A DNA stretch of 64,000 bases from an uncultured Chloroflexia bacterium (GCA_963728205.1 CAVSIV010000001.1:768001-832000), one strand, 5' to 3'; counted from the stretch's first letter, positions 24,336 through 41,419 are shown. Numbers and translations: made by a program. Notes: generated by a model not told the origin, from the letters alone.

Positions 24336-24369
24336 GGTGATCCGGAACGAGGGCTCGTGCGAGACAGTG
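24336..24369 (+). promoter_or_regulatory. autoregulatory ECF sigma promoter (leaderless mRNA)
   Basis: GGTGATCCG-N15-CGAG-A-CAGTG ending just before GTG 24372. Confidence 0.7.
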
Positions 24370-24371
24370 AT

Positions 24372-24941
24372 GTGCACGACCAGCCCACCACGATCGCGGC
24401 GCGCATCCACGCGCGCGACGCCTCGGCGCTGCGCGAGCTCTTCGAACAGGAGGGGCGGCGTGCGCTGGGGCTCGCGTACCGCGTCCTGGGTGAGCAGGCG
24501 GCCGCCGAGGACGCCGTCCAGGAGGCGTTCACCCAGCTGTGGGAGCGCGCCGCGCGGCTCGATCCCGCGGGCGGCCGCATCGAGTCGCTGCTGATGACGA
24601 TGGTTCACCGTCGCGCGATCGACCTCGCCCGCCGGCGGAGCCGGGCGCCGCGCCCGCTGCCGAGCGTCGAGCTGCTGCCGCACGTCGACGAGGAGGCGCA
24701 GGCGGTGCTCGATCACGTCGTGGAGGCGGTCTCCAGCGAGGGGCTGCGCGCGCAGCTGCGCGGGATGCTCGGTGCGCTGCCGGACGAGCAGCGCCGCGTC
24801 GTCGAGCAGGTGCACTACGACGGGCTGACGCTGCGCGAGATCGCCGAGCGCGAAGGGGTGCCGCTGGGCACGGTGAAGAGCCGGCTGCGGCTGGCGATGA
24901 CGAAGCTGACCGAGGCGATGCGAACGAGGGCGCCGCGATGA
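24372..24941 (+). CDS. ECF sigma-70 factor (SigK-like)
   Basis: AEDAVQEAFTQLW, HRRAID, LPDEQR, GLTLREIA, PLGTVKSRLR. Confidence 0.92.
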   Translation: MHDQPTTIAARIHARDASALRELFEQEGRRALGLAYRVLGEQAAAEDAVQEAFTQLWERAARLDPAGGRIESLLMTMVHRRAIDLARRRSRAPRPLPSVELLPHVDEEAQAVLDHVVEAVSSEGLRAQLRGMLGALPDEQRRVVEQVHYDGLTLREIAEREGVPLGTVKSRLRLAMTKLTEAMRTRAPR

Positions 24942-25738
24942 CCCGGGCGATCACCTGCGACGAGGCGCGCGAGCTCTTGCCGGGCTACGCGTTCGACGCG
25001 CTCGAGGACGACGGGCGCGAGGCGCTCGAGGCTCATCTCGGCGCCGGGCGCGAGCACGACGCGGAGCTGGTGGAGCTGCGGGCGACGGTGTTCGCGCTCG
25101 ACACGCTGGCGGATGAGCGCGAGCCGTCGGGCGCGCTGGGTGCGCGGATCGCGAGCATCACGCGGGCCGCACCGGCGGTGGGCGCCGCGGATGCGGAAGC
25201 GGCCACGGCGGCGGACGCGCCGGGCGTGGGGGTCGCGGCCGCCGGGCCGCCGGGCGACGCGGTCGCGGCGCCGTTGACGGGGGCGACCGCGCGCGGCGGG
25301 CGCCGCGCGACGCGGCTGCGCTGGGCGCTCGCCGCGGCCGCGGTGGTTGCGCTGGTCGCCGTATTTGCCGCGGGTTGGGCGGTCGGTCGCGGCGGCCGGA
25401 GCGGCGCGGCGCCGCTGTTCGCGTTCTCGGTAGAGGGCGGCGGCGGCCAGCTCGTGCGCTTCTCCGGCGTGGCCGGCGAGAGCCCCGTCAGCGTGACGAT
25501 GGCCGGCCTCCAGCGTCTGGACCCCGAGCACGCCTACGAGCTGTGGGCGATCCGCGACGGCCGGTGGATGCGCATCGGCGTCTGCAATACGAATGCGGCC
25601 GGTGGCTGGGTCGGAACGTTCCCGTTCGCGCTCCGCGCGGGCGACGACGTGGCGCTCACGATCGAGCCGGCCGGCGGCTCCGCCGCGCCAAGCTCGACGC
25701 CGATCCTGCGCCGGGGATCCGGCGCGCGGCAGGGGTGA
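24938..25738 (+). CDS. RskA-like anti-sigma factor
   Basis: ELLPGYAFDAL, EAHL, TM segment, YELWAI, ALTIEPAGGS; ATGA overlap with sigma. Confidence 0.85.
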   Translation: MTRAITCDEARELLPGYAFDALEDDGREALEAHLGAGREHDAELVELRATVFALDTLADEREPSGALGARIASITRAAPAVGAADAEAATAADAPGVGVAAAGPPGDAVAAPLTGATARGGRRATRLRWALAAAAVVALVAVFAAGWAVGRGGRSGAAPLFAFSVEGGGGQLVRFSGVAGESPVSVTMAGLQRLDPEHAYELWAIRDGRWMRIGVCNTNAAGGWVGTFPFALRAGDDVALTIEPAGGSAAPSSTPILRRGSGARQG

Positions 25739-25896: not shown

Positions 25897-27720
25897 TCAG
25901 GCGGGCACCGAGCGCATGCCGGCCGCCTGGGTCTGCTCCGCCGCGCCGACGGGGAGCGGGTCGCCGGAGTCGTCGACCGGCCAGAGCGGCAGCGTGAAGC
26001 GAACCTCGAGGCCGCCGCCGTCGCGCGGCATGGCCCAGATGGCACCGGAGAGCGCCTCGACGAGCCGTCGGCAGACGGTGAGGCCCATCCCGACGCCCGG
26101 GGCGTCGACGCGCTCGGAGCGATAGAACCGCTCGAAGATCAGGTCCAGTTCGTGCGGCGCCACGCCGATCCCGCGGTCGAGCACGGCCACCCACGCGTGA
26201 TCGGCGTCCACGCCGGCCGTCACGTCGATGGGCTCGCCGGCACCGCTGTACTTGTCGGCGTTCGTGAGCAGGTTGTGCAGCACCTGCTCGACGTAGGTCT
26301 GCTCCGCCGCCACCAGCAGCATGTCCTGTGTGGGCGTGAACCGCACCGCGCGGTCCCCGCGGAAGTGCATGAAGCGGTCGGCGCTCGCCTGCACCACGGT
26401 ATTGAGCGACACGGGCTCGGTGCCCAGGTTCGCGCCGACCTCGACGCGGGCGAGCACCAGGAGGTCCTCCACGATGCGGCGCAGGCGCTCGGACTCGCGC
26501 GCGAGGGTCTGGACCAGCTCGGAGCGGCGCTCCGCGGAGAGGGATCGGTCGCGGGACCACAGCATCTGCGCGCTGCCGTAGACGGTCGTGAGCGGCGTGC
26601 GCATCTCGTGCGAGATCAGCGCAAGGAACTCGTCCTTCGCCTCGCTCGTGCGGCGCAGCTCCTCGCGGACCTGCTCGGATTCCGTGAACAGGCGCGCGTT
26701 CTCCACGGCGAGCGCGCAGCGGTGCGCGAGGTCCTGGCCGAGCCGGAAGTCGTCGGCGTCGTAGACGCGCTCGCTATCGCCGAGGCCGAGCGCCATCGTC
26801 CCCACCGTGCGCAGGTGCGCGACGAGCGGGAACACCATGACCGAGCGGCGCCCGAGCAGGCGCAGGTGCGCGATCTGGTCGGCGTCGAGGTGCTCGTCCG
26901 GCTCGAGGGTCGACGGGTCGAGCACGATGCCGGGCCGTTCGCCGGCGAACGCGGCGAAGGCCTCGGCGCTGTTCGGCTCGGCATGCCGCGCGGAGAGCGC
27001 CGCCTCGAGCTCGGGGTCCGCGGCGGCAATCACGCGCCGACTCTGCCAGCCGTCGGCCTCGTCGATGTCGACGATGCACGCCGTGGCGACGGTCGGCACC
27101 GCCAGCCGCGCGATGCTGCGCAGCGTCGCGTCGTAATCGAGCGAGGTAAGGATCGTGCTCGCCTCGGCGAGGAAGGCGAGCCGCCGCTGCGCCGCGCGCG
27201 CCTCCGCGAGGGCGCTCTCGCGCTGCTCGAGCAGCTCGTCCTTGGCGCCGTTTGCCGCGAGCAGCTCGCGCGTGCGCTCGTGGACCGCCTCCTCGAGCTC
27301 GATGGCGCGGCGCTCGAGCGCCGACTGCTGCGCGTCCACCTGTCGCTGCAGCGCGCTCACCTGCAGCGCGCGCGCGAGCGACGCCACGAAGTAGTCACGG
27401 TCGATCGGCTTCTGGATGAAGTCGAACGCGCCGCCGCGCAGCGCCTGCACGGCGAGGTCGCGCTCGCCGTGCCCGGTGATCAGCACGGTCGGGGTGTGCG
27501 GCCGGAAGCGCCGGATCATCGCCAGCAGGCCCAGGCCGTCGATGCCCGGCATCTTGATGTCGGTGACGATCACGTCGTAGTCGACGGCCTGGATCTGGTG
27601 AATGGCGCGCGCGGCGGACTCGCAGACGTCGACCGCGACGCCGGGCATGCGCAGCCGCAGCGCGGCCGGCAGGGCGTCGAGGAGGGCCGCGTCGTCGTCG
27701 ACGATCAGGATGCTGCTCAT
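25897..27720 (-). CDS. hybrid REC-GAF-histidine kinase
   Basis: ILIVDDD, TDIKMPGIDG, ITGHG, FIQKP; GAF; SHEMRTPL, NLLTNADKY, DRGIG, GVGMGL. Confidence 0.93.
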   Translation of the reverse strand: MSSILIVDDDAALLDALPAALRLRMPGVAVDVCESAARAIHQIQAVDYDVIVTDIKMPGIDGLGLLAMIRRFRPHTPTVLITGHGERDLAVQALRGGAFDFIQKPIDRDYFVASLARALQVSALQRQVDAQQSALERRAIELEEAVHERTRELLAANGAKDELLEQRESALAEARAAQRRLAFLAEASTILTSLDYDATLRSIARLAVPTVATACIVDIDEADGWQSRRVIAAADPELEAALSARHAEPNSAEAFAAFAGERPGIVLDPSTLEPDEHLDADQIAHLRLLGRRSVMVFPLVAHLRTVGTMALGLGDSERVYDADDFRLGQDLAHRCALAVENARLFTESEQVREELRRTSEAKDEFLALISHEMRTPLTTVYGSAQMLWSRDRSLSAERRSELVQTLARESERLRRIVEDLLVLARVEVGANLGTEPVSLNTVVQASADRFMHFRGDRAVRFTPTQDMLLVAAEQTYVEQVLHNLLTNADKYSGAGEPIDVTAGVDADHAWVAVLDRGIGVAPHELDLIFERFYRSERVDAPGVGMGLTVCRRLVEALSGAIWAMPRDGGGLEVRFTLPLWPVDDSGDPLPVGAAEQTQAAGMRSVPA

Positions 27721-28895
27721 CGCGCACCTCCCGCACCGGGCACCGGCTCGGCGCGTGCGTGGACCGGATCCACGTACCGCGGCAGGCGGACGGTGAAGAT
27801 CGCGCCGCCGTTCGGCGCGTTCTCGACGTCCACGCTGCCCTCGTGCTCCTTCACGATGCCGTAGAGGATCGACAGCCCGAGTCCGGTGCCCTGGCCCACG
27901 TCCTTGGTCGTGAAGAACGGGTCGAAGATGCGCTGGTGGAGGTCGGCCGGGATGCCCGGACCGGTGTCGCGGACCTCCACTTCGACCACGTCGCGCTGGC
28001 GCTTGCTGGAGATCGCGACACGCCGGATCGGCGCGCCGGCGAGAGCATCGCGCGCGTTGGTGAGCAGGTTAATGAAGACCTGCTCCATCTGGATGCCGTG
28101 TCCGAGCACGATCGGATCCTCGGGCGTGAGGTCGAGGCTGACCTCGATCTGGCGCAGGCGCAGCTGCTCCTGCATCAGCGAGACGGAGCGCTCGATGGCT
28201 TCGTTGAGCGAGATCGGCTCCTTGGTCAGCGGCGCCGCACGCCCGAAGGTTCGCAGGTGCGAGATGATCTCGGTCGCCTTGCGCACCTGCTGCATCGCCT
28301 TCGTGAGCTCTTCGGTCATGCGCTCCCGGTGCGTGTGTCCGAGCGCGAGCTGGTCGATCACGTTGCCGATGTAGAGCCCGATGTTGTTGAGCGGGTTGTT
28401 CAGCTCGTGCGCGACGCCGGTCGTGAGCTCGCCGAGTGTCGCCAGCTTCGCGGTCTGGACGAGCTGCTCCTGCTTCTCGCGCAGCTCCTGCTCGCGCTGC
28501 TGGATCGCCTCCGTCGTGTCGCGGAGGTCGCTCATGATGTGGATCATCGCCTTGCGGCTGTCTTCCAGCCTCAGCTTCGACCCGTGCAGGTCCTGGAGGA
28601 TGTGCATCACGGCGCGGCGCGAGCGGTCGAGACGGGCGGCCTGCTCGGCGAGCTGGCGGCGGTCGCGCTCGTAGTCGATCAGGATGTGCAGCATCGCCTT
28701 GCGCTGGTCGGAGAGGCGCCGGTTCCGCTCCGCCAGGTCGAGCATGATGTGGAGCATCGCGCGGCGGCGGTCCTCGCCTTCGCGCAGCCGCTTCTCGAGG
28801 GTCTCGATGCGCGCGCGCAGACGCTCGTCCGCTTCGACGAGTGTCTCCTGCGTGAGCGGGTCCGCTCCGACCAACGGGACGAGCTCAGTCACCAT
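27717..28895 (-). CDS. cytoplasmic NtrB-like histidine kinase with repetitive N-terminal coiled coil and no sensor domain
   Basis: LATLGELTTGVAHELNNPL, QVFINLLTNARDA, DTGPGI, FDPFFTTK, GTGLGL; four R(R/K)A(M/V)xHIxxD repeats. Confidence 0.92.
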   Translation of the reverse strand: MVTELVPLVGADPLTQETLVEADERLRARIETLEKRLREGEDRRRAMLHIMLDLAERNRRLSDQRKAMLHILIDYERDRRQLAEQAARLDRSRRAVMHILQDLHGSKLRLEDSRKAMIHIMSDLRDTTEAIQQREQELREKQEQLVQTAKLATLGELTTGVAHELNNPLNNIGLYIGNVIDQLALGHTHRERMTEELTKAMQQVRKATEIISHLRTFGRAAPLTKEPISLNEAIERSVSLMQEQLRLRQIEVSLDLTPEDPIVLGHGIQMEQVFINLLTNARDALAGAPIRRVAISSKRQRDVVEVEVRDTGPGIPADLHQRIFDPFFTTKDVGQGTGLGLSILYGIVKEHEGSVDVENAPNGGAIFTVRLPRYVDPVHARAEPVPGAGGAR

Positions 28896-30571
28896 CAGGA
28901 CGTGGCCACGCGGCCTCCGCGAAGTTGCTCCATGTCGCTCCGCTGCTTCTCGAGCTCCTTCTCGAGGGCGATCATCTTGAGCTCGCGCCCGACGACCACT
29001 TCCTCGAACTTCTCGAGGTCAAGGATCTTCTCCTGGAGCTCGGACTTGGACTCCTCGAGGTCGCGCACCACGCGCTCGTACGCGCGCATGTCGCGGAGGA
29101 TGCCGATGGCGCCGATCACCTTCCCGTCGACGTCGCGGAGCGCCGAGGCGTTGAGCGTCGTGGGGATCACCTCGCCCGACGCGCTCGTCGGGTTGAGGCT
29201 GGCGTTGCGCGTCACGCCCTTCTCGACCACCTCGCGCAGCGCCTCGGTGAACTGGCGCGTCTCTTCCTGCGAGATGAAGCGCGAGAGGGACTGCTCGACC
29301 ACTTCGTCGGTGCGGAAGCCGAGGAGCCCGGAGACGGCGTCGTTGGCCAGTGTGATCTTGCCTTCGAGGTCCGAGACGAACACGGGGTCGGGGGCGTTCT
29401 CGATCAGGCTCATCGCGAACGCGCGCGCCTTGTCGAGCTCGCGCATGTCGCGAAGGATGCCGATGACGCCGATCACGACGCCGTCGGGGTCGCGCAGGGC
29501 GGACGCGTTGAGGCTCGTGGAGATGACCTCGCCCGAGACGCTTCTCGGGTTGAGGAGCACGTTGCGCGTGACGCCCTTCTCCACCACCTCGCGAAGGGCC
29601 GCAGTGAACTCCCTGGCCTCCTCGGCGGAGATGAACTGGGAGAGCGACTGCTCGACCACCTCGTCGGTGCGGAACCCGAGGAGCTGGAACACCGCGTCGT
29701 TGGCCTGGAGGATCTTCCCTTCGAGGTCCGAGACGAAGACGGGGTCGGGGGCGTTCTTGATCAGGCTCTCGGCGTAGGCGCGGGCTTTGTCGAGCTCGCG
29801 CATGTCGCGGAGGATGCCGATGGCGCCGATCACCTCGCCGTCGGGGTCGCGGAGGGCCGACGCGTTGAGCGTGGTGGAGATGACCTCGCCCGAGGCGCTG
29901 CGCGGGTTGAGGAGGACGTTGCGCGTGACGCCCTTCTCGACGACCTCGCGCAGGGCGGCGGTGAACTCGCGCGTCTCCTCGGGGGAGATGAAGCGGGAGA
30001 GCGACTGCTCGACGACTTCGTCGGGGCGGAAGCCGAGCAGCTGGGAGACCGCGTCGTTGGCGAGGGTGATCTTGCCCTCGAGGTCCGAGACGAACACGGG
30101 GTCGGGGGCGTTCTTGATCAGGCTCTCGGCGTAGGCGCGGGCTTTGTCGAGCTCGCGCATGTCGCGGAGGATGCCGATGGCGCCGATCACGACCCCGTCG
30201 GGGTCGCGCAGCGCGGCCGCGTTCAGCGTGGTGGCGATGATCTCGCCGGAGGCGCTGCGCGGGTTGAGGACCGCGTTGCGCGTGACACCGTGCTCCACGA
30301 CCTCGTCGAGGGCGGCGAGGAACTCGCGCGTCTCCTCGGGCGAGATGATGCGGGAGAGCGACTGCTCGACGAGCTCGTCGGGGCGGAAGCCGAGGAGCTC
30401 GAAGACCGCGGCGTTCGCCTGCAGGATCTTGCCTTCGAGATCGGAGACGAACACCGGGTCGGGGGCGTTCGCGATGATGATGTCGGCAGCGAGGGCGCTG
30501 CCGGCGCGTAGCTGATCGCGCTCACGTTCTGCCGTCGCGGTCCGTGCGCGCGCGCCCGAATCAGCCTTCAC
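28895..30571 (-). CDS. four-PAS-domain protein with C-terminal coiled coil (VGRELKM), no output domain
   Basis: Four 119-aa repeats NAPDPVFVSDLEGKI...IGILRDMR; tail LEKFEEVVVGRELKMIALEKEL; start GTG 30571 (SD) or ATG 30628. Confidence 0.88.
   Translation of the reverse strand: MKADSGARARTATAERERDQLRAGSALAADIIIANAPDPVFVSDLEGKILQANAAVFELLGFRPDELVEQSLSRIISPEETREFLAALDEVVEHGVTRNAVLNPRSASGEIIATTLNAAALRDPDGVVIGAIGILRDMRELDKARAYAESLIKNAPDPVFVSDLEGKITLANDAVSQLLGFRPDEVVEQSLSRFISPEETREFTAALREVVEKGVTRNVLLNPRSASGEVISTTLNASALRDPDGEVIGAIGILRDMRELDKARAYAESLIKNAPDPVFVSDLEGKILQANDAVFQLLGFRTDEVVEQSLSQFISAEEAREFTAALREVVEKGVTRNVLLNPRSVSGEVISTSLNASALRDPDGVVIGVIGILRDMRELDKARAFAMSLIENAPDPVFVSDLEGKITLANDAVSGLLGFRTDEVVEQSLSRFISQEETRQFTEALREVVEKGVTRNASLNPTSASGEVIPTTLNASALRDVDGKVIGAIGILRDMRAYERVVRDLEESKSELQEKILDLEKFEEVVVGRELKMIALEKELEKQRSDMEQLRGGRVATS
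29085..30475. repeat. intragenic 357-bp tandem repeat (about 4 copies) encoding the PAS domains
   Basis: TCGAGCTCGCGCATGTCGCG recurs with 357-bp period (about 29433, 29790, 30147). Confidence 0.85.
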
Positions 30572-31032
30572 GATCCTCGCCTCCAGCCCGGGTGAGCCCG
30601 ATCCACGCAAGAAAACCCGCGCCACCATACGCAGGCACTCGGAGGCGGCGTATTGCGGAATCGCGACACGCTGGGACTGGCGATGTTGAGGATTCGTAAC
30701 ACTCGATACAGAGCGGACGCTCGGCGGTCCGCGCAGATGCGCCGGGCGGTCCGGGACGCCGCTGGACGCCCGAGGCCGGGCAAGAGGGCGTCCAGCGGCG
30801 CGACTAGCGGTGGCGACGCCGCGGCGGGTCGATCACGAACAGGCCGACGGCGAGGGGCCGCCGATCGCAATCTGCGCTGCGCGTGGAGCATGACGAGGGA
30901 CCAATGGCCGGTCTTCCGGGTGACCTTCGCCCCGGGGACGAGGCCCGCCTCGGCTCATCCTCGACCCGGGCGCGGCCTATGATGGCGCCGCTGCGCTCGT
31001 CCGGTCGGACGCGGCCGCTTTCGAGGGAGGGC

Positions 31033-32412
31033 ATGACGATGGCGGACCAGTACAAGTACCTGCTCGAAGAATCCGAGATCCCCACGCACTGGTACAACAT
31101 CGCCGCCGACCTGCCGAACCCGCCATCGCCGCCGCTGCACCCGGGCACCGGGCAGCCGATCGGCCCGGACGACCTCGCGCCGCTGTTCCCGATGGGCGTG
31201 ATCATGCAGGAGGTCGCGACCGACCGCTGGATCGAGATCCCGGAGCCGGTGCGCGAGGCCTACAAGAACTACCGACCGTCCCCGCTCTACCGCGCACACC
31301 GGCTGGAGCGCGCGCTGCAGACGCCGGCGCACATCTACTACAAGTACGAGGGTGCGAGCCCGGTGGGCTCGCACAAGGTGAACTCGGCGCTCGCGCAGGT
31401 CTACCTGAACAAGCAGGAGGGCGTGAAGCGCATCACCACCGAGACGGGCGCCGGCCAGTGGGGCTCCGCGCTCGCCTACGCGTGCCAGATGTTCGGCATC
31501 GAGCTGAAGGTCTACATGGTGCGCGTGTCCTACGAGCAGAAGCCGTACCGCAAGGCGATGATGAAGGTCTACGGGGCCGACGTCGTCCCGAGCCCGAGCC
31601 CCGACACCGAGGCCGGCCGCCAGGTGCTCGCCGCCGACCCCGACTCGCGCGGGTCGCTGGGCATCGCCATCAGCGAGGCCGTCCAGGATGCGGCGAGCCG
31701 CGAGGACACGAAGTACTCGCTGGGCTCGGTGCTGAACCACGTCCTCATGCACCAGACGGTGATCGGCCAGGAGGCCATCAAGCAGATGGAGAAGGCCGGC
31801 GAGATGCCGGACGTCGTCATCGGCTGCGTCGGCGGCGGGTCCAACTACGCGGGGCTCGCGTTCCCGTTCATGCAGGGCGTGCTCAAGGGCGAGCAGGGTC
31901 CGCGCTTCCTGGCCGCCGAGCCGGCGTCGTGCCCGTCGCTGACCAAGGGCCTCTACACGTACGACTTCGGCGACACGGTGGGACTGACGCCGCTGGTGCG
32001 GATGTACACGCTCGGGCACTCGTTCATGCCGCCGTCGATCCACGCGGGCGGGCTGCGCTACCACGGCATGGCGCCGCTCATGAGCCAGCTGCACCAGGAG
32101 GGGTTCGTCGACGCGGTCGCGCACCCGCAGCTGAAGGTGTTCGACGCGGCGGTTCAGTTCGCGCGCGCCGAGGGCATCATCCCGGCGCCCGAGTCGGCGC
32201 ACGCGATCCGCTCGGCGATCGACGAGGCGCTGGCGGCGCGCGAGGCCGGCGAGGCGCGCGTGATCCTGTTCAACCTCTCCGGTCACGGCATGCTCGACCT
32301 CGGCGCGTACGAGCAGTACTTCAACGGCGAGCTCGAGGACTACGAGTACCCCGCGGACCGCATCGCGGAGGCGCTCAAGGGCATCCCGCAGATCGCCGGC
32401 GCGAACGCCTAG
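31033..32412 (+). CDS. trpB2: tryptophan synthase beta chain, TrpB2 type
   Basis: [26 protein letters not shown] (PLP Lys), [25 protein letters not shown]. Confidence 0.95.
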
Positions 32413-32972: not shown

Positions 32973-33314
32973 ATGCCTCCAACGCACCCCGTCCTCGTTC
33001 CCGACAGCCTGCTCGACCGCGTCGCTCAGCGCTTCCGCGTGCTCGGCGACGCCAGCCGGCTCGCGATCCTGCGGCTGCTCGTCGATCGCGGCGAGCTCAC
33101 CGTCGGCACGATCGTCGACTCGCTGCACATGAGCCAGGCGAACGTCAGCAAGCACCTGCGGCTGCTGCTCGACGCGGGCATCGTGGAGCGCCGCGCCGAG
33201 GGCACGAGCCGCTACTTCCGCGTCGTCGACGACAGCGTCGAGCAGGTCTGCTCGCTCGTCTGCGACCGCATCGCATCCCAGGTCCAGGCACAGGCGCTCG
33301 CCCTGAGGCGCTGA
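32973..33314 (+). CDS. ArsR/SmtB-family repressor with C-terminal CxxxC
   Basis: FRVLGDASRLAIL, SQANVSKHL, VCSLVC. Confidence 0.92.
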   Translation: MPPTHPVLVPDSLLDRVAQRFRVLGDASRLAILRLLVDRGELTVGTIVDSLHMSQANVSKHLRLLLDAGIVERRAEGTSRYFRVVDDSVEQVCSLVCDRIASQVQAQALALRR

Positions 33315-33416
33315 ACCTCGCCGCGGAAGCCGCGGCCTGCCCGGCGGCGCCGTTGCGCGTCAGATCATCGTTTCATCGGCAAGCAGTTGTTCATCTAGCG
33401 GAGGAGACCCCGGAAG

Positions 33417-33740
33417 ATGCCCCTGACCCACCAGTCGATCGAGGTGACCCCGCAGGACGCGTTCGCGCTCGCCGAGGCCGGCGAAGGCGTCGTGGTCGAC
33501 GTCCGCGAGCCCTGGGAGTGGGCGACCGGCCACGCCGCCGGCGCCGTCCACATCGCGCTCTACGGCCTGCCGCAGCGCCACCGCGAGCTGCCGAAGGAGC
33601 GCACGATCCTCTGCATCTGCGCGAGCGGGAACCGCAGCCTCGCCGCCGCGGACTACCTGCGGCAGCTCGGCTTCGACGCGCGCTCGGTCTCCGGCGGCAC
33701 GACGCTCTGGTCGCTGCACCGCCTGCCGATGGAGGCGTAG
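33417..33740 (+). CDS. rhodanese-like sulfurtransferase
   Basis: VDVREPWEWATGH, CASGNRS. Confidence 0.92.
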   Translation: MPLTHQSIEVTPQDAFALAEAGEGVVVDVREPWEWATGHAAGAVHIALYGLPQRHRELPKERTILCICASGNRSLAAADYLRQLGFDARSVSGGTTLWSLHRLPMEA

Positions 33741-33742
33741 CG

Positions 33743-34480
33743 ATGCTGCTCACGGTCACCGCCGGCCTCGCCACCGGGCTCGCGCTCGGCGCGGTCGGCG
33801 GCGGCGGGTCGATCCTGCTCGTGCCGCTGCTCGTGCTCGTGTTCGGGCGCGACGCGCACGCCGCGTCCGGCACGGCGCTGGCCGTGGTCGGCGCGACCGC
33901 GCTGCTCGGCGCCGCGCTCCACGCGCGGGCGGGGCACGTGCGGATACGCGAGGCGGCGCTGTTCGCGGTGCCGGGCATCGCGGCTGCGGCCGTCGCCGCG
34001 CCGGTGAACCAGCGCATTCCCGGCGAGGCGCTGCTCGGCGCGATTGCGGTGCTGATGCTCGTGGTCGCGTGGCGCATGTGGCGCCCGTCGGCGCCCGCGG
34101 CCGGGCGCCGGCCGGCGCCGGTGGTGATTGCCGCCGGCGCGGCGTCGGGCGCGCTGACCGGCGTGCTCGGCGTCGGCGGCGGGTTCGTGATCGTGCCGGC
34201 GCTGGTGCTGGCGCTCGGCATGCCGATGGCCGACGCCGTCGGCACGTCGCTCGCGGTGATCGCCGCGAACGCGGCGGCCGCGCTCGGCGGGTACTGGTTG
34301 AGCGGCGACGTCGAGGTTGCGCTCGCGGCGGTGCTCGCCGCCGGCGCCGGCCTCGGCGTGCTGTCCGGCTCCGCCGTCGCGCGCCGCGCGGGCTCCGTGC
34401 GCCTGCAGCGCGCGTTCGCGGTGATGCTGGTGCTCGTTGCCGTCTACACGGGGGTGCGCGAGGCCGTGCTCGTCGCCTGA
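33743..34480 (+). CDS. TauE/SafE-family sulfite exporter
   Basis: GAVGGGGSILLVP, GVLGVGGGFVIVPAL, AVGTSL. Confidence 0.92.
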   Translation: MLLTVTAGLATGLALGAVGGGGSILLVPLLVLVFGRDAHAASGTALAVVGATALLGAALHARAGHVRIREAALFAVPGIAAAAVAAPVNQRIPGEALLGAIAVLMLVVAWRMWRPSAPAAGRRPAPVVIAAGAASGALTGVLGVGGGFVIVPALVLALGMPMADAVGTSLAVIAANAAAALGGYWLSGDVEVALAAVLAAGAGLGVLSGSAVARRAGSVRLQRAFAVMLVLVAVYTGVREAVLVA

Positions 34481-34527
34481 CGGCGGCGGACCCGGCGCTC
34501 GACGCCCCCCACTGGAGGAGGACTTCG

Positions 34528-35922
34528 ATGGAGATCGTGCAGTTCGTGGCGGACGCGCTCGGCGACGCGTCGTACCTGGTGGTCGGCGGCGGCGAGGCCG
34601 TCGTGATCGACCCCCAGCGCGACGTGCGCCCGTACGTCGCGGCAGCCGAAGCGCGCGGCGTGCCGATCACGCGCGTCTTCGAGACGCACGTCCACAACGA
34701 CTACATCTCCGGCGGCCCCGAGCTCGCCGCGCGCGGCGCCGAGATCGTCGCGCCCGCCGAGGCCGGGCTGCAGTTCGCACACCGGCCCGTGGCCGACGGC
34801 GAGGAGATCGCGGTCGGCGCCGCGCGCATCCGCGCGGTGCGGGCGCCCGGGCACACGCACCACCACACCGCCTACCTCGCGATCGACGAGCATGGCACGG
34901 TCGCGGCGGCGTTCACCGGCGGCTCGATCATCATCGGCGGCGCCGGCCGCACGGACCTGCTCGGGCCCGACGAGACCGAGACGCTGACGCGCCTGCAATG
35001 GGAGAGCGCGCAGCGGCTGGCGACGCTCGTGCCGGGCGAGGCGGAGTTGCTGCCAACGCACGGCGCCGGCTCGTTCTGCTCGTCGCAGCAGTGCGGCGGC
35101 GAGCGCCGCGCGCCGCTGGCGGTGGAGCGCCCGCGCAACATCGTGCTCGCGAGCCCGGACTTCGCGACGTTCCGCGCGCTGCATCTCGCGAACCCGGCGC
35201 CGATCCCCGCGTACTACCGCCACATGGCGCCCATCAACCGCGAGGGGCCACGCATCCTCGGCGCGCCGCCGCGGCCGGAGGCGCTGACGCCGACGTCGAC
35301 GATCGAGGCGCTGCAGTCCGGCACGCCGCTCGTCGACGTGCGCAGCCGGCTGGACTTCGCGCGGGCGCACGTGCCCGGCGCGATCTCGATCGAGGAGGGC
35401 GAGTCGATGCTCGCGTTCCTCGGCTGGACGCTCCCGTTCGACAGCGCGCTGGTCCTGGTCACCGACGGGCCCGCGCAGGCGGACCGCGTGACGACGGACC
35501 TCGCGCGCATCGGCTACGAGGAGGTGCGCGGCTACCTGCCGTTCGCGGCGTGGCGCGCCGCGGGCGCACCCGTCGGCCGGCTCGACACCGTCGACCGCGT
35601 GCAGGCGGCGCGGCTGCTCGCCGCGGGGACGCTGCCGGTGTACGACGTGCGCTTCGCGAGCGACCTGCGCGCGCTGCCGCTCGCGGGCGCCGCGCACATG
35701 CCGTTCGACCGCGTAGCCGAGTGGGTCCCGGAGATCGACGACCAGGAGATGCTCCTGGTCTGCGGCGGCGGCAGCCGCGCCGCGACCGCGGCGAGCCTCC
35801 TCAAGAACGCCGGCCGGCGGCCGCGGGCGCTCGTCGACGGTGGAGTGGCGGACGTGCTCGAAGTGCTCGACCGCGGCCGCGGGCACGCTGCCGACCTGGA
35901 GGACGACGCCGTCGCGGTGTGA
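34528..35922 (+). CDS. MBL-fold persulfide dioxygenase-rhodanese fusion (CstB-like)
   Basis: IDPQRD, ETHVHNDYISG, PGHT, GRTDL, PTHGAGSFC, two rhodanese-like domains (CGGGSRA). Confidence 0.88.
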   Translation: MEIVQFVADALGDASYLVVGGGEAVVIDPQRDVRPYVAAAEARGVPITRVFETHVHNDYISGGPELAARGAEIVAPAEAGLQFAHRPVADGEEIAVGAARIRAVRAPGHTHHHTAYLAIDEHGTVAAAFTGGSIIIGGAGRTDLLGPDETETLTRLQWESAQRLATLVPGEAELLPTHGAGSFCSSQQCGGERRAPLAVERPRNIVLASPDFATFRALHLANPAPIPAYYRHMAPINREGPRILGAPPRPEALTPTSTIEALQSGTPLVDVRSRLDFARAHVPGAISIEEGESMLAFLGWTLPFDSALVLVTDGPAQADRVTTDLARIGYEEVRGYLPFAAWRAAGAPVGRLDTVDRVQAARLLAAGTLPVYDVRFASDLRALPLAGAAHMPFDRVAEWVPEIDDQEMLLVCGGGSRAATAASLLKNAGRRPRALVDGGVADVLEVLDRGRGHAADLEDDAVAV

Positions 35923-36985: not shown

Positions 36986-37600
36986 TCAGGCCGGGTGGTC
37001 GCGGATCCACCGGGTGCGCGCGGTCTCCTCGCGCTCCGCCTCGTCGAGGCGGCGCCGCAGGCCGCGCTGCTCCGCCTCGAGCAGCGGGATCCAGCGCCGC
37101 TCGACGATGCGCAGGCGATGCGACGTCGTGGCGATCTCGGCGTCGATGCGCGCGGCCGCGAGGTTCAGCGCGCCGCAGCGCGCGGCGGCCACGAGGGCGT
37201 CGCGGTAGGCGTCCGCCGCCGCGCCGACGGCGGCGCTGCCGCCGAGCGTCGCGTGCGGCGACGCGGGCGGCGGGGTGCAGGCGGCGTGCACGGGGTAGGC
37301 GACGCCCATCGTCTCGCGCCACGTATAGGCGACCTCCGCGACGCCCGCCGCGTGCTGCGCGGCCGCCGCGAGCGCGCCCTCGCCGGCGAGCAGCTGCGCG
37401 CGCACGAGCCAGCGGTCGGCGGTCGCGTACGCGGCCGCCCACGCCGCCTGCGCGCGCTCGGCCTCCGCCCCCAGGCGGTCGCGCTCGACGTGCAGCGCCG
37501 CGAGCTTCTGCTCGAGGATCTCGCCCCCGCGGCGCGCGACGGCGAGCCGCTCGCGTAGCCAGAGGCGGCCGCTGCGGCCGGGCGGCACGCGCACGCTCAC
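36986..37600 (-). CDS. ntpD: V/A-type ATPase subunit D
   Basis: RLAVARRGGEILEQK, EIATTSHRLRIVERRWIP, LDEAEREE; last gene of the operon. Confidence 0.85.
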   Translation of the reverse strand: MSVRVPPGRSGRLWLRERLAVARRGGEILEQKLAALHVERDRLGAEAERAQAAWAAAYATADRWLVRAQLLAGEGALAAAAQHAAGVAEVAYTWRETMGVAYPVHAACTPPPASPHATLGGSAAVGAAADAYRDALVAAARCGALNLAAARIDAEIATTSHRLRIVERRWIPLLEAEQRGLRRRLDEAEREETARTRWIRDHPA

Positions 37601-39156
37601 GGCGCGTCACCCGGCGGCGCGGGCAGCGCCGCGTGCGCCTCCGGCCCCGCGCCCGGCCCCGCCTGCGGTGCGGCGGCCGGCGGAGCGGCCGGCTCTTCGG
37701 ACTCGTCGGATGCGCCCGGCGCGATCGGGCGGTAGTGCGCCTCCACGATCTCGCGCGGCACCATCGTCAGCTCGCGCGCCGGCAGCGCGCCCAGCGCGCG
37801 CCACGTGCGGTCGAGCGTGTCGGCCATGGCGCGCGACTCGTCCATGCGCTGCGCCATCACGTCGCGCGTGAAGGCCGCGGCGAACGCGACCGTGAGGCGC
37901 TCGCGCGGCGAGAGCGCCTCCTCGCCGAGCAGTTCCGCGAGCTCGCCGGCCGCGCGCGCCCGCGCGAGCAGCGCCTGCGCCTGGGCCGCCGCCGTGGGGT
38001 GGTCGTCGCGCGTGCGGCCCGCGCCGACGCCGTGGCGCATCAGCCGCGACAGCGACGTCAGCACGTCGACGGGCGGGTAGATACCGCGCATCGCGAAGTC
38101 ACGCGAGAGCACCACCTGCCCCTCGGTGATGTAGCCGGTGAGGTCCGGCACCGGGTGCGTGATGTCGCCGCCGGGCATCGTCAGCACCGGCATCAGCGTG
38201 AGCGAGCCCGGCCGGCCGCGCACGCGGCCGCAGCGCTCGTAGAGCGAGGCGAGGTCGCTGTAGAGATAGCCCGGGTAGCCGCGCCGCGTCGGCACCTCGC
38301 CGCGGGACGACGCGACCTCGCGCACCGCTTCGCAGTAGTTCGTCATGTCGGCCATCAGGACCAGCACGTGCTGGCCGCGGTCGAACGCGAGGTGCTCGGC
38401 GACGGTGAGCGCGAGGCGCGGGGTGAGGATGCGCTCGACCGCCGGGTCGTCGGCGGTGTTGAGGAAGAGCACGAGGTCGCCGGCCTCGGCGCGCTCCTGC
38501 AGGCCGTCGCGCACGAGCGCGGCTTCGGCGTGCGTCACGCCCATCGCCGCGAAGACGACGCGGAACGCCTCGTCGCCGCGGTCGCCGCTGGCGCCCTCGC
38601 CGGCCGTGCGCTCGACGTGCGCGGATGCGGCGATCTGCACGGCGAGCTCGAGGTGCGGCAGGCCGCCGATCGAGAAGATCGGCAGCTTCTGGCCGCGCAC
38701 GAGCGTCATCAGCAGGTCGATCACCGAGACGCCGGTGACGATCGGGTCCGCGGGCGGCTCGCGGCGCGCGGGGTTGAGCGCGAAGCCGGTGACCGGCTCG
38801 CGCCGCGTGCCGAGCACCGGCGGCCCCCCGTCGAGCGGCTCGCCGCGGCCGTTGCACACGCGGCCCAGCCAGTCTTCGGTGAGCGGGATGCTCATCGGCC
38901 GCCCGGTGAACGCCGCGCGCACGGCGTGCGTGCCGAGCCCGCCCGTGCCCTCGAAGACCTGCACGACGGCGAGGTCGTCGTGCACGTCGATCACCACGCC
39001 ATGCCGCCGCTCGCCGGCGTCGGTCACGACGTCGACGTACTCGTCCCAGCCCACCCCGGCGACGCCGCGCACGACCATCAGCGGGCCGTCGAGCGACTCG
39101 ACGTCGCGGTACTCGACGGGCGCGCGCCACGCGGGCACGGCGGGGTCGAGCGTCAT
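37597..39156 (-). CDS. ntpB: V/A-type ATPase subunit B
   Basis: TLVRGQKLPIFS, TPRLALTVAE, DMTNYCEA, RRGYPGYLYSDLASLYER, THPVPDLTGYITEGQ. Confidence 0.95.
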   Translation of the reverse strand: MTLDPAVPAWRAPVEYRDVESLDGPLMVVRGVAGVGWDEYVDVVTDAGERRHGVVIDVHDDLAVVQVFEGTGGLGTHAVRAAFTGRPMSIPLTEDWLGRVCNGRGEPLDGGPPVLGTRREPVTGFALNPARREPPADPIVTGVSVIDLLMTLVRGQKLPIFSIGGLPHLELAVQIAASAHVERTAGEGASGDRGDEAFRVVFAAMGVTHAEAALVRDGLQERAEAGDLVLFLNTADDPAVERILTPRLALTVAEHLAFDRGQHVLVLMADMTNYCEAVREVASSRGEVPTRRGYPGYLYSDLASLYERCGRVRGRPGSLTLMPVLTMPGGDITHPVPDLTGYITEGQVVLSRDFAMRGIYPPVDVLTSLSRLMRHGVGAGRTRDDHPTAAAQAQALLARARAAGELAELLGEEALSPRERLTVAFAAAFTRDVMAQRMDESRAMADTLDRTWRALGALPARELTMVPREIVEAHYRPIAPGASDESEEPAAPPAAAPQAGPGAGPEAHAALPAPPGDAP

Positions 39157-40904
39157 GTCCGCCTCTCCTCGGGCGCCTCGATCGCCTGGACGAGCGCGTC
39201 GGCGAGGCGCGTGATGCCGGCGACGTCGTCGGGCGCGAGCGCCTCTCGCGCGCGGAGCAGCGCGGAGTAGTCGAGTGCCTCCACATCCGCTGCGGTCACG
39301 CCGCGGTCGACGGCCGCGCGGGCGGCGTCGTAGACGGCGAGCATCGCCTCCAGCAGCGCGAGCCCGCGCTCCAGCGGCGAGTAGGCGTCGTTCGCGTTGA
39401 GCGCGTTCTGCTGCAGCACGCCCTCGCGCAGCAGGCGCCCGGCGAGCAGCGTCATGCGCTCGCGGTCGCGCAGCGCCGTCGTGCCGACCAGCTGCGCGAT
39501 CGACTCGAGCCGATCGGCGTCGGCGAGCACGGCGAGCGTGCGCGCGCGCAGGTCGAGCCAGCGCGCCTGGCTGGCGTCGGCCTCGGCCTCGCCCGTCGCC
39601 ACGACGTCGACATCGCGCGAGAACGACTCGCTCCAGCTCACCGCGGGGTAGTGGCGCGCCGCGGCGAGCTCGCCGTCCAGCGACCAGAAGCAGCGCACGA
39701 AGCGGCGGGTGTGCGCGGTGACGGGCTCGGTCTGGTCGCCGCCCGGTGGGGAGACCGCGGCCACCACCGTGACCGACGCCTCGGCGCCGCCGAGCGTCGT
39801 CACGCGTCCCGACCGCTCGTAGAACGCCGCGAGCGCGGACGACAGGCTCGCGGGGAAGCCTTCCTCGACGGGCAGCTCGCCGGCGCGCGACGCGAACTCG
39901 CGCAGCGCCTCCGCCCAGCGCGAGGTGGAGTCGGCGATCACGACGGCGTCGTAGCCCTGATCACGGAAGTACTCGCCGACGGTGATCCCGGTGTAGATGC
40001 TCGCCTCGCGCGCCATCACCGGCATGTTCGAGGTGTTCGCGATCACGACCGTGCGCTCCATGAGCGGGCGGTTCGTGCGCGGGTCGATCAGGCCGGGCAG
40101 CTCCGAGAGGACGTCGGCCATCTCGTTGCCGCGCTCGCCGCAGCCGACGTAGACGATGACGTCGGCGTCGGCCCACTTCGCGATTTGCTGCAGGAGCATC
40201 GTCTTGCCGGTACCGAAGCCGCCCGGCACGGCGGCGGTGCTGCCGAGCGCGACGGGGAAGAGCAGGTCGAGCACGCGCTGGCCGGTGCGCAGCGGGGTGT
40301 CGCTCTCCAGCCGCGCCGCCGCCGGCCGCGGCGCGCGCACCGGCCACGGGTTCACGAGCCCCACCGCCGTGCCGCCGACGACCGCGATCTCCGCGTCGCC
40401 GGCATATTCGCCGGCCGGCGCGACGCGGTCGACGCGGCCACGCACGCCCGGCGGCGCGAGGATGCGGTGCTCGACGGCCGCGGTCTCCTGGACGACGCCG
40501 AGCACCGTGCCCGGCTCGACGCCGTCGCCCGCGGCGACGCGTGGCGCGAACGTCCAGCGCGCCGGCGCGGCGTGGTCGCGCTCGGCGCCGGGGTGGAGGC
40601 GCTCGGGCGCGCCGCCGAGCGGGCGCAGGAGGCCGTCGAACACCTGGCCGATCAGGCCGGGGCCGAGGTCGGCGGAGAGCGCGCGGCCGCGGCCGGTCGC
40701 GGGATCGCCGGGGCGGAAGCCGCCCGTGTACTCGTAGACCTGCACCGTGGCGACGTCGCCGCGGATGCGCACGATCTCGCCCAGCTCGTCGCGGGCGCCG
40801 AGCGCGACGAGGTCGAACATGCGCGCGCCGGCGAGGCCGCGCACCTCGACGAGCGGTCCGTTCACGCGAACCACGCTGCCGCGCTGCCCGGCGGCGGCGG
40901 TCAC
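39153..40904 (-). CDS. ntpA: V/A-type ATPase subunit A
   Basis: PGGFGTGKT, YVGCGERGNEM, NTSNMPVMAREAS, DSTSRWAEALRE, AVSPPGGD. Confidence 0.95.
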   Translation of the reverse strand: MTAAAGQRGSVVRVNGPLVEVRGLAGARMFDLVALGARDELGEIVRIRGDVATVQVYEYTGGFRPGDPATGRGRALSADLGPGLIGQVFDGLLRPLGGAPERLHPGAERDHAAPARWTFAPRVAAGDGVEPGTVLGVVQETAAVEHRILAPPGVRGRVDRVAPAGEYAGDAEIAVVGGTAVGLVNPWPVRAPRPAAARLESDTPLRTGQRVLDLLFPVALGSTAAVPGGFGTGKTMLLQQIAKWADADVIVYVGCGERGNEMADVLSELPGLIDPRTNRPLMERTVVIANTSNMPVMAREASIYTGITVGEYFRDQGYDAVVIADSTSRWAEALREFASRAGELPVEEGFPASLSSALAAFYERSGRVTTLGGAEASVTVVAAVSPPGGDQTEPVTAHTRRFVRCFWSLDGELAAARHYPAVSWSESFSRDVDVVATGEAEADASQARWLDLRARTLAVLADADRLESIAQLVGTTALRDRERMTLLAGRLLREGVLQQNALNANDAYSPLERGLALLEAMLAVYDAARAAVDRGVTAADVEALDYSALLRAREALAPDDVAGITRLADALVQAIEAPEERRT

Positions 40905-41419
40905 GACCACAGCTCCGCGACGCGCGCGCCCAGCGCGTCGATGCAGCGGTCGACGACGGCGGGGAGCGAGTAGTCGACGCGGCGGCCGTCGGCCTCCGCG
41001 ACGATGCCGCCGCCCGGCGCGTCGTCGACGCGCGCGTCCGCGCCGAGCTGCTCGGCCGCGGCGCGACGCAGGCGGTCGGACAGTGCGTCCACGGCGGGCG
41101 GGGACGACGGGCCGCCGCCGGCGGGCGCCGCGCCCGGCGCGAGCGCGGCGAGCGCCTGCACGCGCAGCGCGTCGTATGCGGCGCGGCGCGACTCGAGCAC
41201 GCGGCGCTGGGCCTCGCGGCGCGCGCGGGCGCGCAGCCGCGCGCCGGCGTGCTCGGCGACGCGCGTGCCCTCGTCGCGAGCCTCCGCGACCGCGGCGTCG
41301 GCCGCGGCGCGGGCGGCGTCGGTGCGTTCCGCGGCCGCGCGCGCAGCGTCGGCGGAGATGGCGTCGGCGTCGCGTTGCGCCGCGGCGAGGACGGCGGCGC
41401 GGTAGGTGGCGAGTGTCAT
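40901..41419 (-). CDS. V/A-type ATPase subunit E-like stator protein
   Basis: Ala/Arg coiled coil; GGIVAEADGRRVDYSL; lies between F and A. Confidence 0.75.
   Translation of the reverse strand: MTLATYRAAVLAAAQRDADAISADAARAAAERTDAARAAADAAVAEARDEGTRVAEHAGARLRARARREAQRRVLESRRAAYDALRVQALAALAPGAAPAGGGPSSPPAVDALSDRLRRAAAEQLGADARVDDAPGGGIVAEADGRRVDYSLPAVVDRCIDALGARVAELWS

Follow-up and report, generated by a model that had tools for sequence, protein, structure and literature searches.

The window analysed here is a stretch of 64,000 nucleotides from an uncultured Chloroflexia bacterium (GCA_963728205.1, CAVSIV010000001.1:768001-832000). Its minus strand carries three overlapping genes (Table 1), which encode an output-less sensor of near-identical PAS repeats ending in a conserved tail (P0001), a sensor-less histidine kinase whose N-terminal coiled coil bears four His-centred helices, hereafter sockets (P0002), and a protein with an N-terminal REC domain (P0003). 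Judging from sequence comparisons, the PAS protein probably docks its C-terminal helix on the sockets of the kinase, and the pair would then constitute one sensor kinase split over two chains. Counted from the ATG start, P0001 has 577 aa; an earlier account of this DNA made without database searches (the sequence-only reading) placed the end of the gene at 30571, which is an alternative GTG start. That account described a four-PAS protein that ends in the tail and lacks an output domain, and the domain scan bears this out: P0001 contains four PAS stretches, the VGRELKM tail and no catalytic domain, and HisKA is absent from its matches among the 25 Pfam families shown. In the AlphaFold2 monomer, the sensor has the PAS fold and its last helix extends through the tail.

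Table 1. Features of the cassette, in coordinates of the window.
Feature	Position	Strand	Remarks
P0001, output-less sensor, four near-identical PAS repeats and C-terminal tail	28895..30628	minus	ORF and domain scan; start ATG 30628 or alternative GTG 30571
PAS repeat 1 of P0001	30161..30469	minus	
PAS repeat 2 of P0001	29804..30112	minus	
PAS repeat 3 of P0001	29447..29755	minus	
PAS repeat 4 of P0001	29090..29398	minus	C-terminal helix unbroken into tail in predicted structure
Tail core of P0001, predicted docking plug	28949..29038	minus	residues 531-560; G547, R548, I553, E556; 97% identical across phyla
P0002, sensor-less NtrB/AtoS-type histidine kinase with N-terminal coiled coil	27717..28895	minus	
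Socket helix 1 (His49)	28737..28766	minus	
Socket helix 2 (His70)	28674..28703	minus	
Socket helix 3 (His98)	28590..28619	minus	
Socket helix 4 (His119)	28527..28556	minus	47 residues ahead of phospho-His163
HisKA/DHp of P0002	28236..28436	minus	residues 154-220; His163 at 28407-28409
HATPase_c of P0002	27777..28094	minus	residues 268-373; N/G1/F/G2 boxes intact
P0003, REC-GAF-HisKA-HATPase	25897..27720	minus	
REC of P0003, conserved third cassette part	27379-27711	minus	Asp54

After a helical N-terminus of about 150 residues, P0002 contains HisKA (27.3 bits in Pfam, cut-off 26.9) and HATPase_c (91.7 bits) alone, with no sensor domain. His163 is invariant in the family, and the protein is an ordinary HisKA enzyme of the NtrB/AtoS-like type. 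The AlphaFold2 monomer consists of a helix over residues 13-103 followed by a second one (110-184) that enters the DHp. Four AxxHIxxD motifs begin at residues 44, 65, 93 and 114, which confirms the sensor-less kinase with helices spaced 21/28/21 that had been proposed. H49, H70, H98 and H119 are invariant in the family, as are D74, D102 and D123, and the consensus differs among the four sockets. On both tail and socket helices, hydrophobic residues occupy flank positions beyond a/d. The array is not a chance pattern, because, of the 34,376 open reading frames (ORFs) in a six-frame translation of the genome, P0002 alone contains the four-helix motif and because 3809 of 4522 candidate proteins match the socket region (the best 120 mostly at ~70-74% identity). 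Contigs from two other sequencing runs match parts of this region with 0-1 differences; none of them bridges the junction. Sensor and kinase genes overlap through TGATG, in keeping with the translational coupling expected of them, and kinase and REC genes through ATGA.

Among GTDB genomes, 232 of 543 pattern hits match the socket region, and the best 80 of these 232 form the set used for locus comparisons. By record title they fall under ten phylum-level labels, or nine with Thermomicrobiales placed in Chloroflexota. A separate tail-ending gene lies directly upstream of the kinase in 78 of the 80 loci; one exception is a contig that begins inside the kinase gene, the other a locus without a sensor. 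Read by eye, L071:5800-5900 has kept the kinase and lost the sensor gene, the last tail residues remaining. Selection by tail leads to the same arrangement: the array follows in 72/72 metagenome loci that extend 400 nt or more downstream (the other 8 of 80 had shorter downstream sequence, 5 with the array and 3 without) and in 22/22 phylum loci. Within 401 genomes of the window's own phylum, 30 match the tail profile and 24 match the array profile; each of the 24 arrays adjoins a tail, and no array occurs in the 371 tail-negative genomes. The predicted co-occurrence and adjacency of the two motifs thus hold from either side. In-frame tail-socket fusions, which the sequence-only reading mentioned beside neighbouring genes, are rare within the window-cassette family (988 longer candidates gave 6 matches, three of them in frame, and an error-prone record is the source of one or more of these three), and fused records in the representative library are rich in frameshifts. 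This suggests that the fusions are mostly read errors and that fusion is weak evidence.

Mean pairwise identity reaches 97% in the tail core and 86% in the last PAS, compared with 79% in the sockets and 63% in the DHp region, and four-fold sites differ by 0.55-0.61 where saturation would be 0.63. Such conservation reflects old purifying selection. Recent horizontal spread was considered as its cause and is rejected, given the near-saturation of four-fold sites and a kinase tree that clusters largely by phylum (a quick tree, with the long row L045 kept and one supported mixed clade). Ktedonospora formicarum (L068, L076) and one Rokubacteria genome (G457) carry two copies of the cassette each.

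Conservation extends to the downstream gene. A REC domain at least 50% identical lies directly behind the kinase in 77 of the 80 loci, two loci ending there and one being without REC, which agrees with the proposed link to a downstream REC. Among 25 hand-picked downstream proteins, the output is a second kinase in 13, a sigma54 activator in 6, SpoIIE plus an RsbW-like ATPase in 3, REC alone in 2 and STAS in 1. By this comparison, P0003 beyond its REC appears to be a lineage-specific output.

The tail and socket motifs belong to a wider unnamed family, in which tails end output-less sensors and sockets precede kinases or HD-type enzymes. At E<=0.001 the tail profile matches 1795 cluster representatives, and tails occur in 20/301, 4/251, 6/151 and 42/301 genomes of four further phyla. 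In line with the detachable, modular tail that had been postulated, many unrelated sensors carry it: none of 53 distant tail proteins (the longer, distant ones from the best 150) has a catalytic domain at E<=1e-9, while 49 have PAS, GAF, MEDS, PocR, REC, RsbRD_N or DUF4118 and 4 match nothing. Downstream sequence of 2.8 kb or more is present in 47 of the 68 distant tail loci examined; within the next 5 kb, a relaxed motif finds a socket in 36 of these 47, and the strict motif, chosen in advance, finds one in 15. The controls give 0/27 for other kinases of this genome, 0/72 for other kinase ORFs, one weak match in 9 unrelated kinase loci and a background of 0.02 matches per 5 kb. Pfam, NCBIfam and PHROGs hold no family model for the tail or the sockets, PDB sequence searches return chance coiled coils alone, and no characterised domain in these four collections explains the helices. 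Matches in the ESM Atlas are small unnamed clusters, viral contigs yield neither motif, and plasmids yield one distant tail.

Several observations concern other members of this family. A second cassette of like design (L193, L202, L204, L205) combines a multi-PAS protein of another PAS type, ~30% identical to the window's PAS plus tail and with a near-identical tail, with a sensor-less kinase bearing 3-6 Asn-type sockets at an exact 21-residue spacing. Tails with a polar residue at +5 (counted from the tail Arg) pair with Phe/Tyr-centred sockets at L260, L268, L269, L271, L274, L275, L277 and L280, and the three partners of such tails that were scanned are HD/HD_5 enzymes instead of kinases. 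In L253, L254, L257, L258 and L259, a socket-like helix (loose motif) and then a tail occur in one chain upstream of a socket kinase; such proteins may possibly act as a relay or daisy chain. P0124 is a membrane sensor-HAMP kinase with three His sockets of the window-kinase family inserted before the same kinase core.

Both halves of the putative interface keep to a fixed heptad register. Among 59 distinct cases, the PAS-terminal Asp and the tail Arg are 7n residues apart in 47 and 7n+4 apart in 9, the remaining 3 having other spacings. On the kinase side, the sockets stand 47/68/96/117 residues from the phospho-His in 107 of 113 members of the window-kinase family, and the last socket stands at 7n+3 from it in 24 of 27 distant kinases. 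In PAS/LOV kinases, heptad dependence of linker length is an established signature of signal-carrying coiled coils (PMC6798134). The tail Gly (R-1) lies at 7n+6 from the PAS end, the phase of the phospho-His in 13 of 19 PAS kinases; a comparison of tail and DHp profiles gives weak similarity (hhalign probability 17%, 23 columns). Covariation was calculated as mutual information with average product correction (MI-APC) over 44 tail-socket pairs, effective number 19.5. Of 957 position pairs, tail R+5 with the socket centre ranks first at 0.42, the next pair reaching 0.22 and the highest value in 40 shuffles being 0.24. Tails paired with Asn/Ser sockets have a hydrophobic +5 and Lys +8 in 32/32, those paired with Phe/Tyr sockets a polar +5 in 10/10, and those paired with His sockets Glu +8 (the window-kinase family and one distant locus). 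The covariation of R+5 with the socket centre fits direct contact between the two helices.

Assuming such contact, the dimeric PAS stack would be the input and would twist its tail coiled coil, an exported linker helix. The tail probably packs against the side of the kinase's N-terminal coiled coil to form a four-helix bundle, with I553 and E556 near the socket His, and the bundle would relay the twist to the DHp as the covalent linker does in ordinary PAS kinases. Four sockets probably provide multivalent, cooperative binding of a single partner. Phosphate would next pass from the kinase to Asp54 of the conserved REC; each lineage fuses this REC to its own output, be it a second kinase, a sigma54 activator or a SpoIIE phosphatase; here it would be the GAF-kinase.

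Several points weigh against docking between the two chains. Kinship and co-inheritance of neighbours could inflate the covariation, the shuffles do not preserve relatedness, and one row of the covariation set is mis-anchored. The relaxed socket motif was widened after misses had been seen, and 11 of the 47 distant tails have no socket within the downstream sequence covered. Many distant socket kinases already have sensors of their own, so the socket is not simply a substitute for a lost sensor. The orientation of the bundle and its stoichiometry are guesses. If tail and sockets were mere homodimer coiled coils in a co-inherited operon, with the PAS protein acting through PAS contacts with the DHp or the REC, or not at all, then neighbouring genes would covary by descent, the heptad spacing would be that of any amphipathic helix and the kinase N-terminus would be the plain long helices that are predicted. 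We regard this explanation as unlikely, given that tail and socket are paired across unrelated sensors (PAS, GAF, MEDS, PocR, REC) and enzymes (kinases, HD proteins), that the pairing sometimes persists with a gene in between, that one residue pair stands far above the rest, and that a tail core of about 29-30 residues is so much better conserved than the kinase DHp region. The shared phase of tail Gly and phospho-His, together with Arg at core positions of the kinase helix and Glu on the tail, would suit another scheme: the tail, imitating DHp helix 1 but lacking its His, would insert into a weak kinase coiled coil instead of docking at its side, and strand exchange into 1:1 heterodimers would turn the kinase off (or on). 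This seems quite unlikely, since the profile similarity of tail and DHp is weak and, in our reading of the register, the socket residue that covaries faces outward from the kinase dimer and is not part of its core.

The number of sockets raises the question of valence. Six tail genes in G592 and five in G955, and the differing consensus of the four sockets, could be taken to mean that each site receives a different sensor protein and that the kinase integrates several inputs. However, the window's genome (G000) has one tail gene, as has each other array-bearing genome of the phylum sample (searches score 13-17 candidates per genome; the two tail matches of G393 are one broken gene) and each of four genomes with 3-6 Asn-type sockets, while the second tail of G457 has its own four-socket kinase. 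Because there is one tail gene per cassette, the four sockets likely bind one partner multivalently, and a different sensor for each site is very improbable. The helical docking code of the sequence-only reading is therefore retained as far as co-occurrence, modularity and a covariation fitting direct contact go, and loses its four sites for different sensors. There is also very little chance that the invariant HxxxD pairs bind metal or protons, so that the kinase would sense through its own coiled coil and the PAS protein would act as a modulator. The invariance of these His and Asp residues and the scarcity of Cys, Trp and His in the PAS repeats would suit it; by contrast, the wider family has Asn, Ser, Phe or Tyr at the socket centre, a position that shows covariation with the tail.

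Docking of tail on sockets may also be one case of something broader. We tentatively entertain a general prokaryotic plug-and-socket code, in which a socket centre of Asn, Phe/Tyr or His is matched to tail +5/+8 and output-less sensors are wired in trans to kinases or HD-type enzymes, daisy-chainable via relay proteins and multiplied in tandem for cooperative switching. The cassette described here would be its most conserved form, serving soil bacteria universally as an input module, and its four-His array may place docking under pH or metal control.

Known systems share parts of this design. In H-NOX/HnoK, NosP/NahK and LuxP/LuxQ, an output-less sensor gene lies beside a kinase gene, as here, and the ligands are known; we know of no dedicated helical plug and socket in these systems. 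The signalling helix (S-helix) and HAMP are coiled-coil relays that act within one chain, unlike the proposed pair, and no Pfam family, HAMP included, matches either helix; of the 9 cases with 7n+4 spacing, 7 are tails containing an RT-type S-helix. With regard to a DivL-like pseudo-DHp partner, the tail Gly has the phase of the phospho-His, and the match to the DHp is the weak one given above. One-chain PAS/LOV kinases (YF1, FixL, AtoS/NtrB class) have the same kinase core, NCBIfam AtoS and FixL being the top partial hits of P0002, below cut-off, and the heptad-phased coiled coil found here follows the same PAS-to-effector rule (PMC6798134). In contrast to them, the window and 78/78 loci with a tail gene encode sensor and kinase separately, and the linker region is present on both chains, bearing the unnamed tail and socket motifs. 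Accessory proteins that set kinase activity by binding include Sda/KipI-KinA/KinB, PtsN-KdpD, SaePQ-SaeS, BceAB-BceS, DivL-CckA and RetS-GacS; in the part of the source available, such partners are system-specific and, where a site is named, contact the DHp or CA-DHp (PMC12189002). Unlike these, the helix pair is portable, reused on many sensors and enzymes, located ahead of the DHp and present with as many as six sockets; that the partner would bind the kinase is suggested by genomic and covariation evidence. Searches of open-licence PMC and bioRxiv texts returned no description of the tail-socket pair. Kinase control by separate proteins and the HisKA core are known; apparently new are the near-invariant multi-PAS/four-His/REC cassette, the tandem arrays whose sockets probably share one partner, and the evidence from phase and covariation.

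If docking holds, thousands of output-less 'PAS domain S-box proteins' and sensor-less kinases would gain a partner rule readable from sequence, and designers of sensor-kinase circuits would have a short, portable and phase-locked helix pair ready for use. A PAS at 86% identity over about nine phyla, wired to different outputs including SpoIIE/STAS stress modules, would point to a common soil-bacterial cue. The cassette is testable, as it is carried by two cultured species, Thermosporothrix hazakensis and Ktedonospora formicarum.

LOV photoreceptors are marked by a flavin-adduct Cys motif in the PAS core and heme-PAS domains of the FixL type by a conserved proximal His. In 191 PAS repeats of the cassette there is one Cys and the flavin-adduct motif is missing, Trp is missing as well, and His is absent from the consensus, with 46 scattered over the repeats and no conserved proximal one. 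Since Cys, Trp and a conserved His are lacking, no cofactor is evident from the sequence of the repeats, and a PAS fold search returned generic PAS/LOV matches at ~20% identity with no clue to a ligand. Of 65 loci, those with one, two, three, four, five and six PAS copies number 4, 16, 25, 17, 2 and 1 respectively, counts in which short-read assemblies may err.

Around the cassette, genes across 24357-25738, 30883-32412, 32973-35922 and 36986-40910 presumably encode an ECF sigma factor with its anti-sigma factor, a TrpB2-like protein, an ArsR/rhodanese/TSUP/metallo-beta-lactamase cluster and V-type ATPase subunits (recognised by eye). None of them is conserved beside the cassette elsewhere: across 81 loci no flanking gene is conserved in more than a handful, and no upstream DNA word common to the loci was found. 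The sensor and kinase genes (27717-30628) have a G+C content of 68% against 74% for the window, and a full-length orthologue was found in none of 60 relatives; on these grounds the two genes were possibly acquired in this lineage. Among the PAS repeats, four-fold sites differ by 0.40 within a gene and by 0.55 between genes, and the lower divergence within genes would fit either concerted evolution or shared codon bias.

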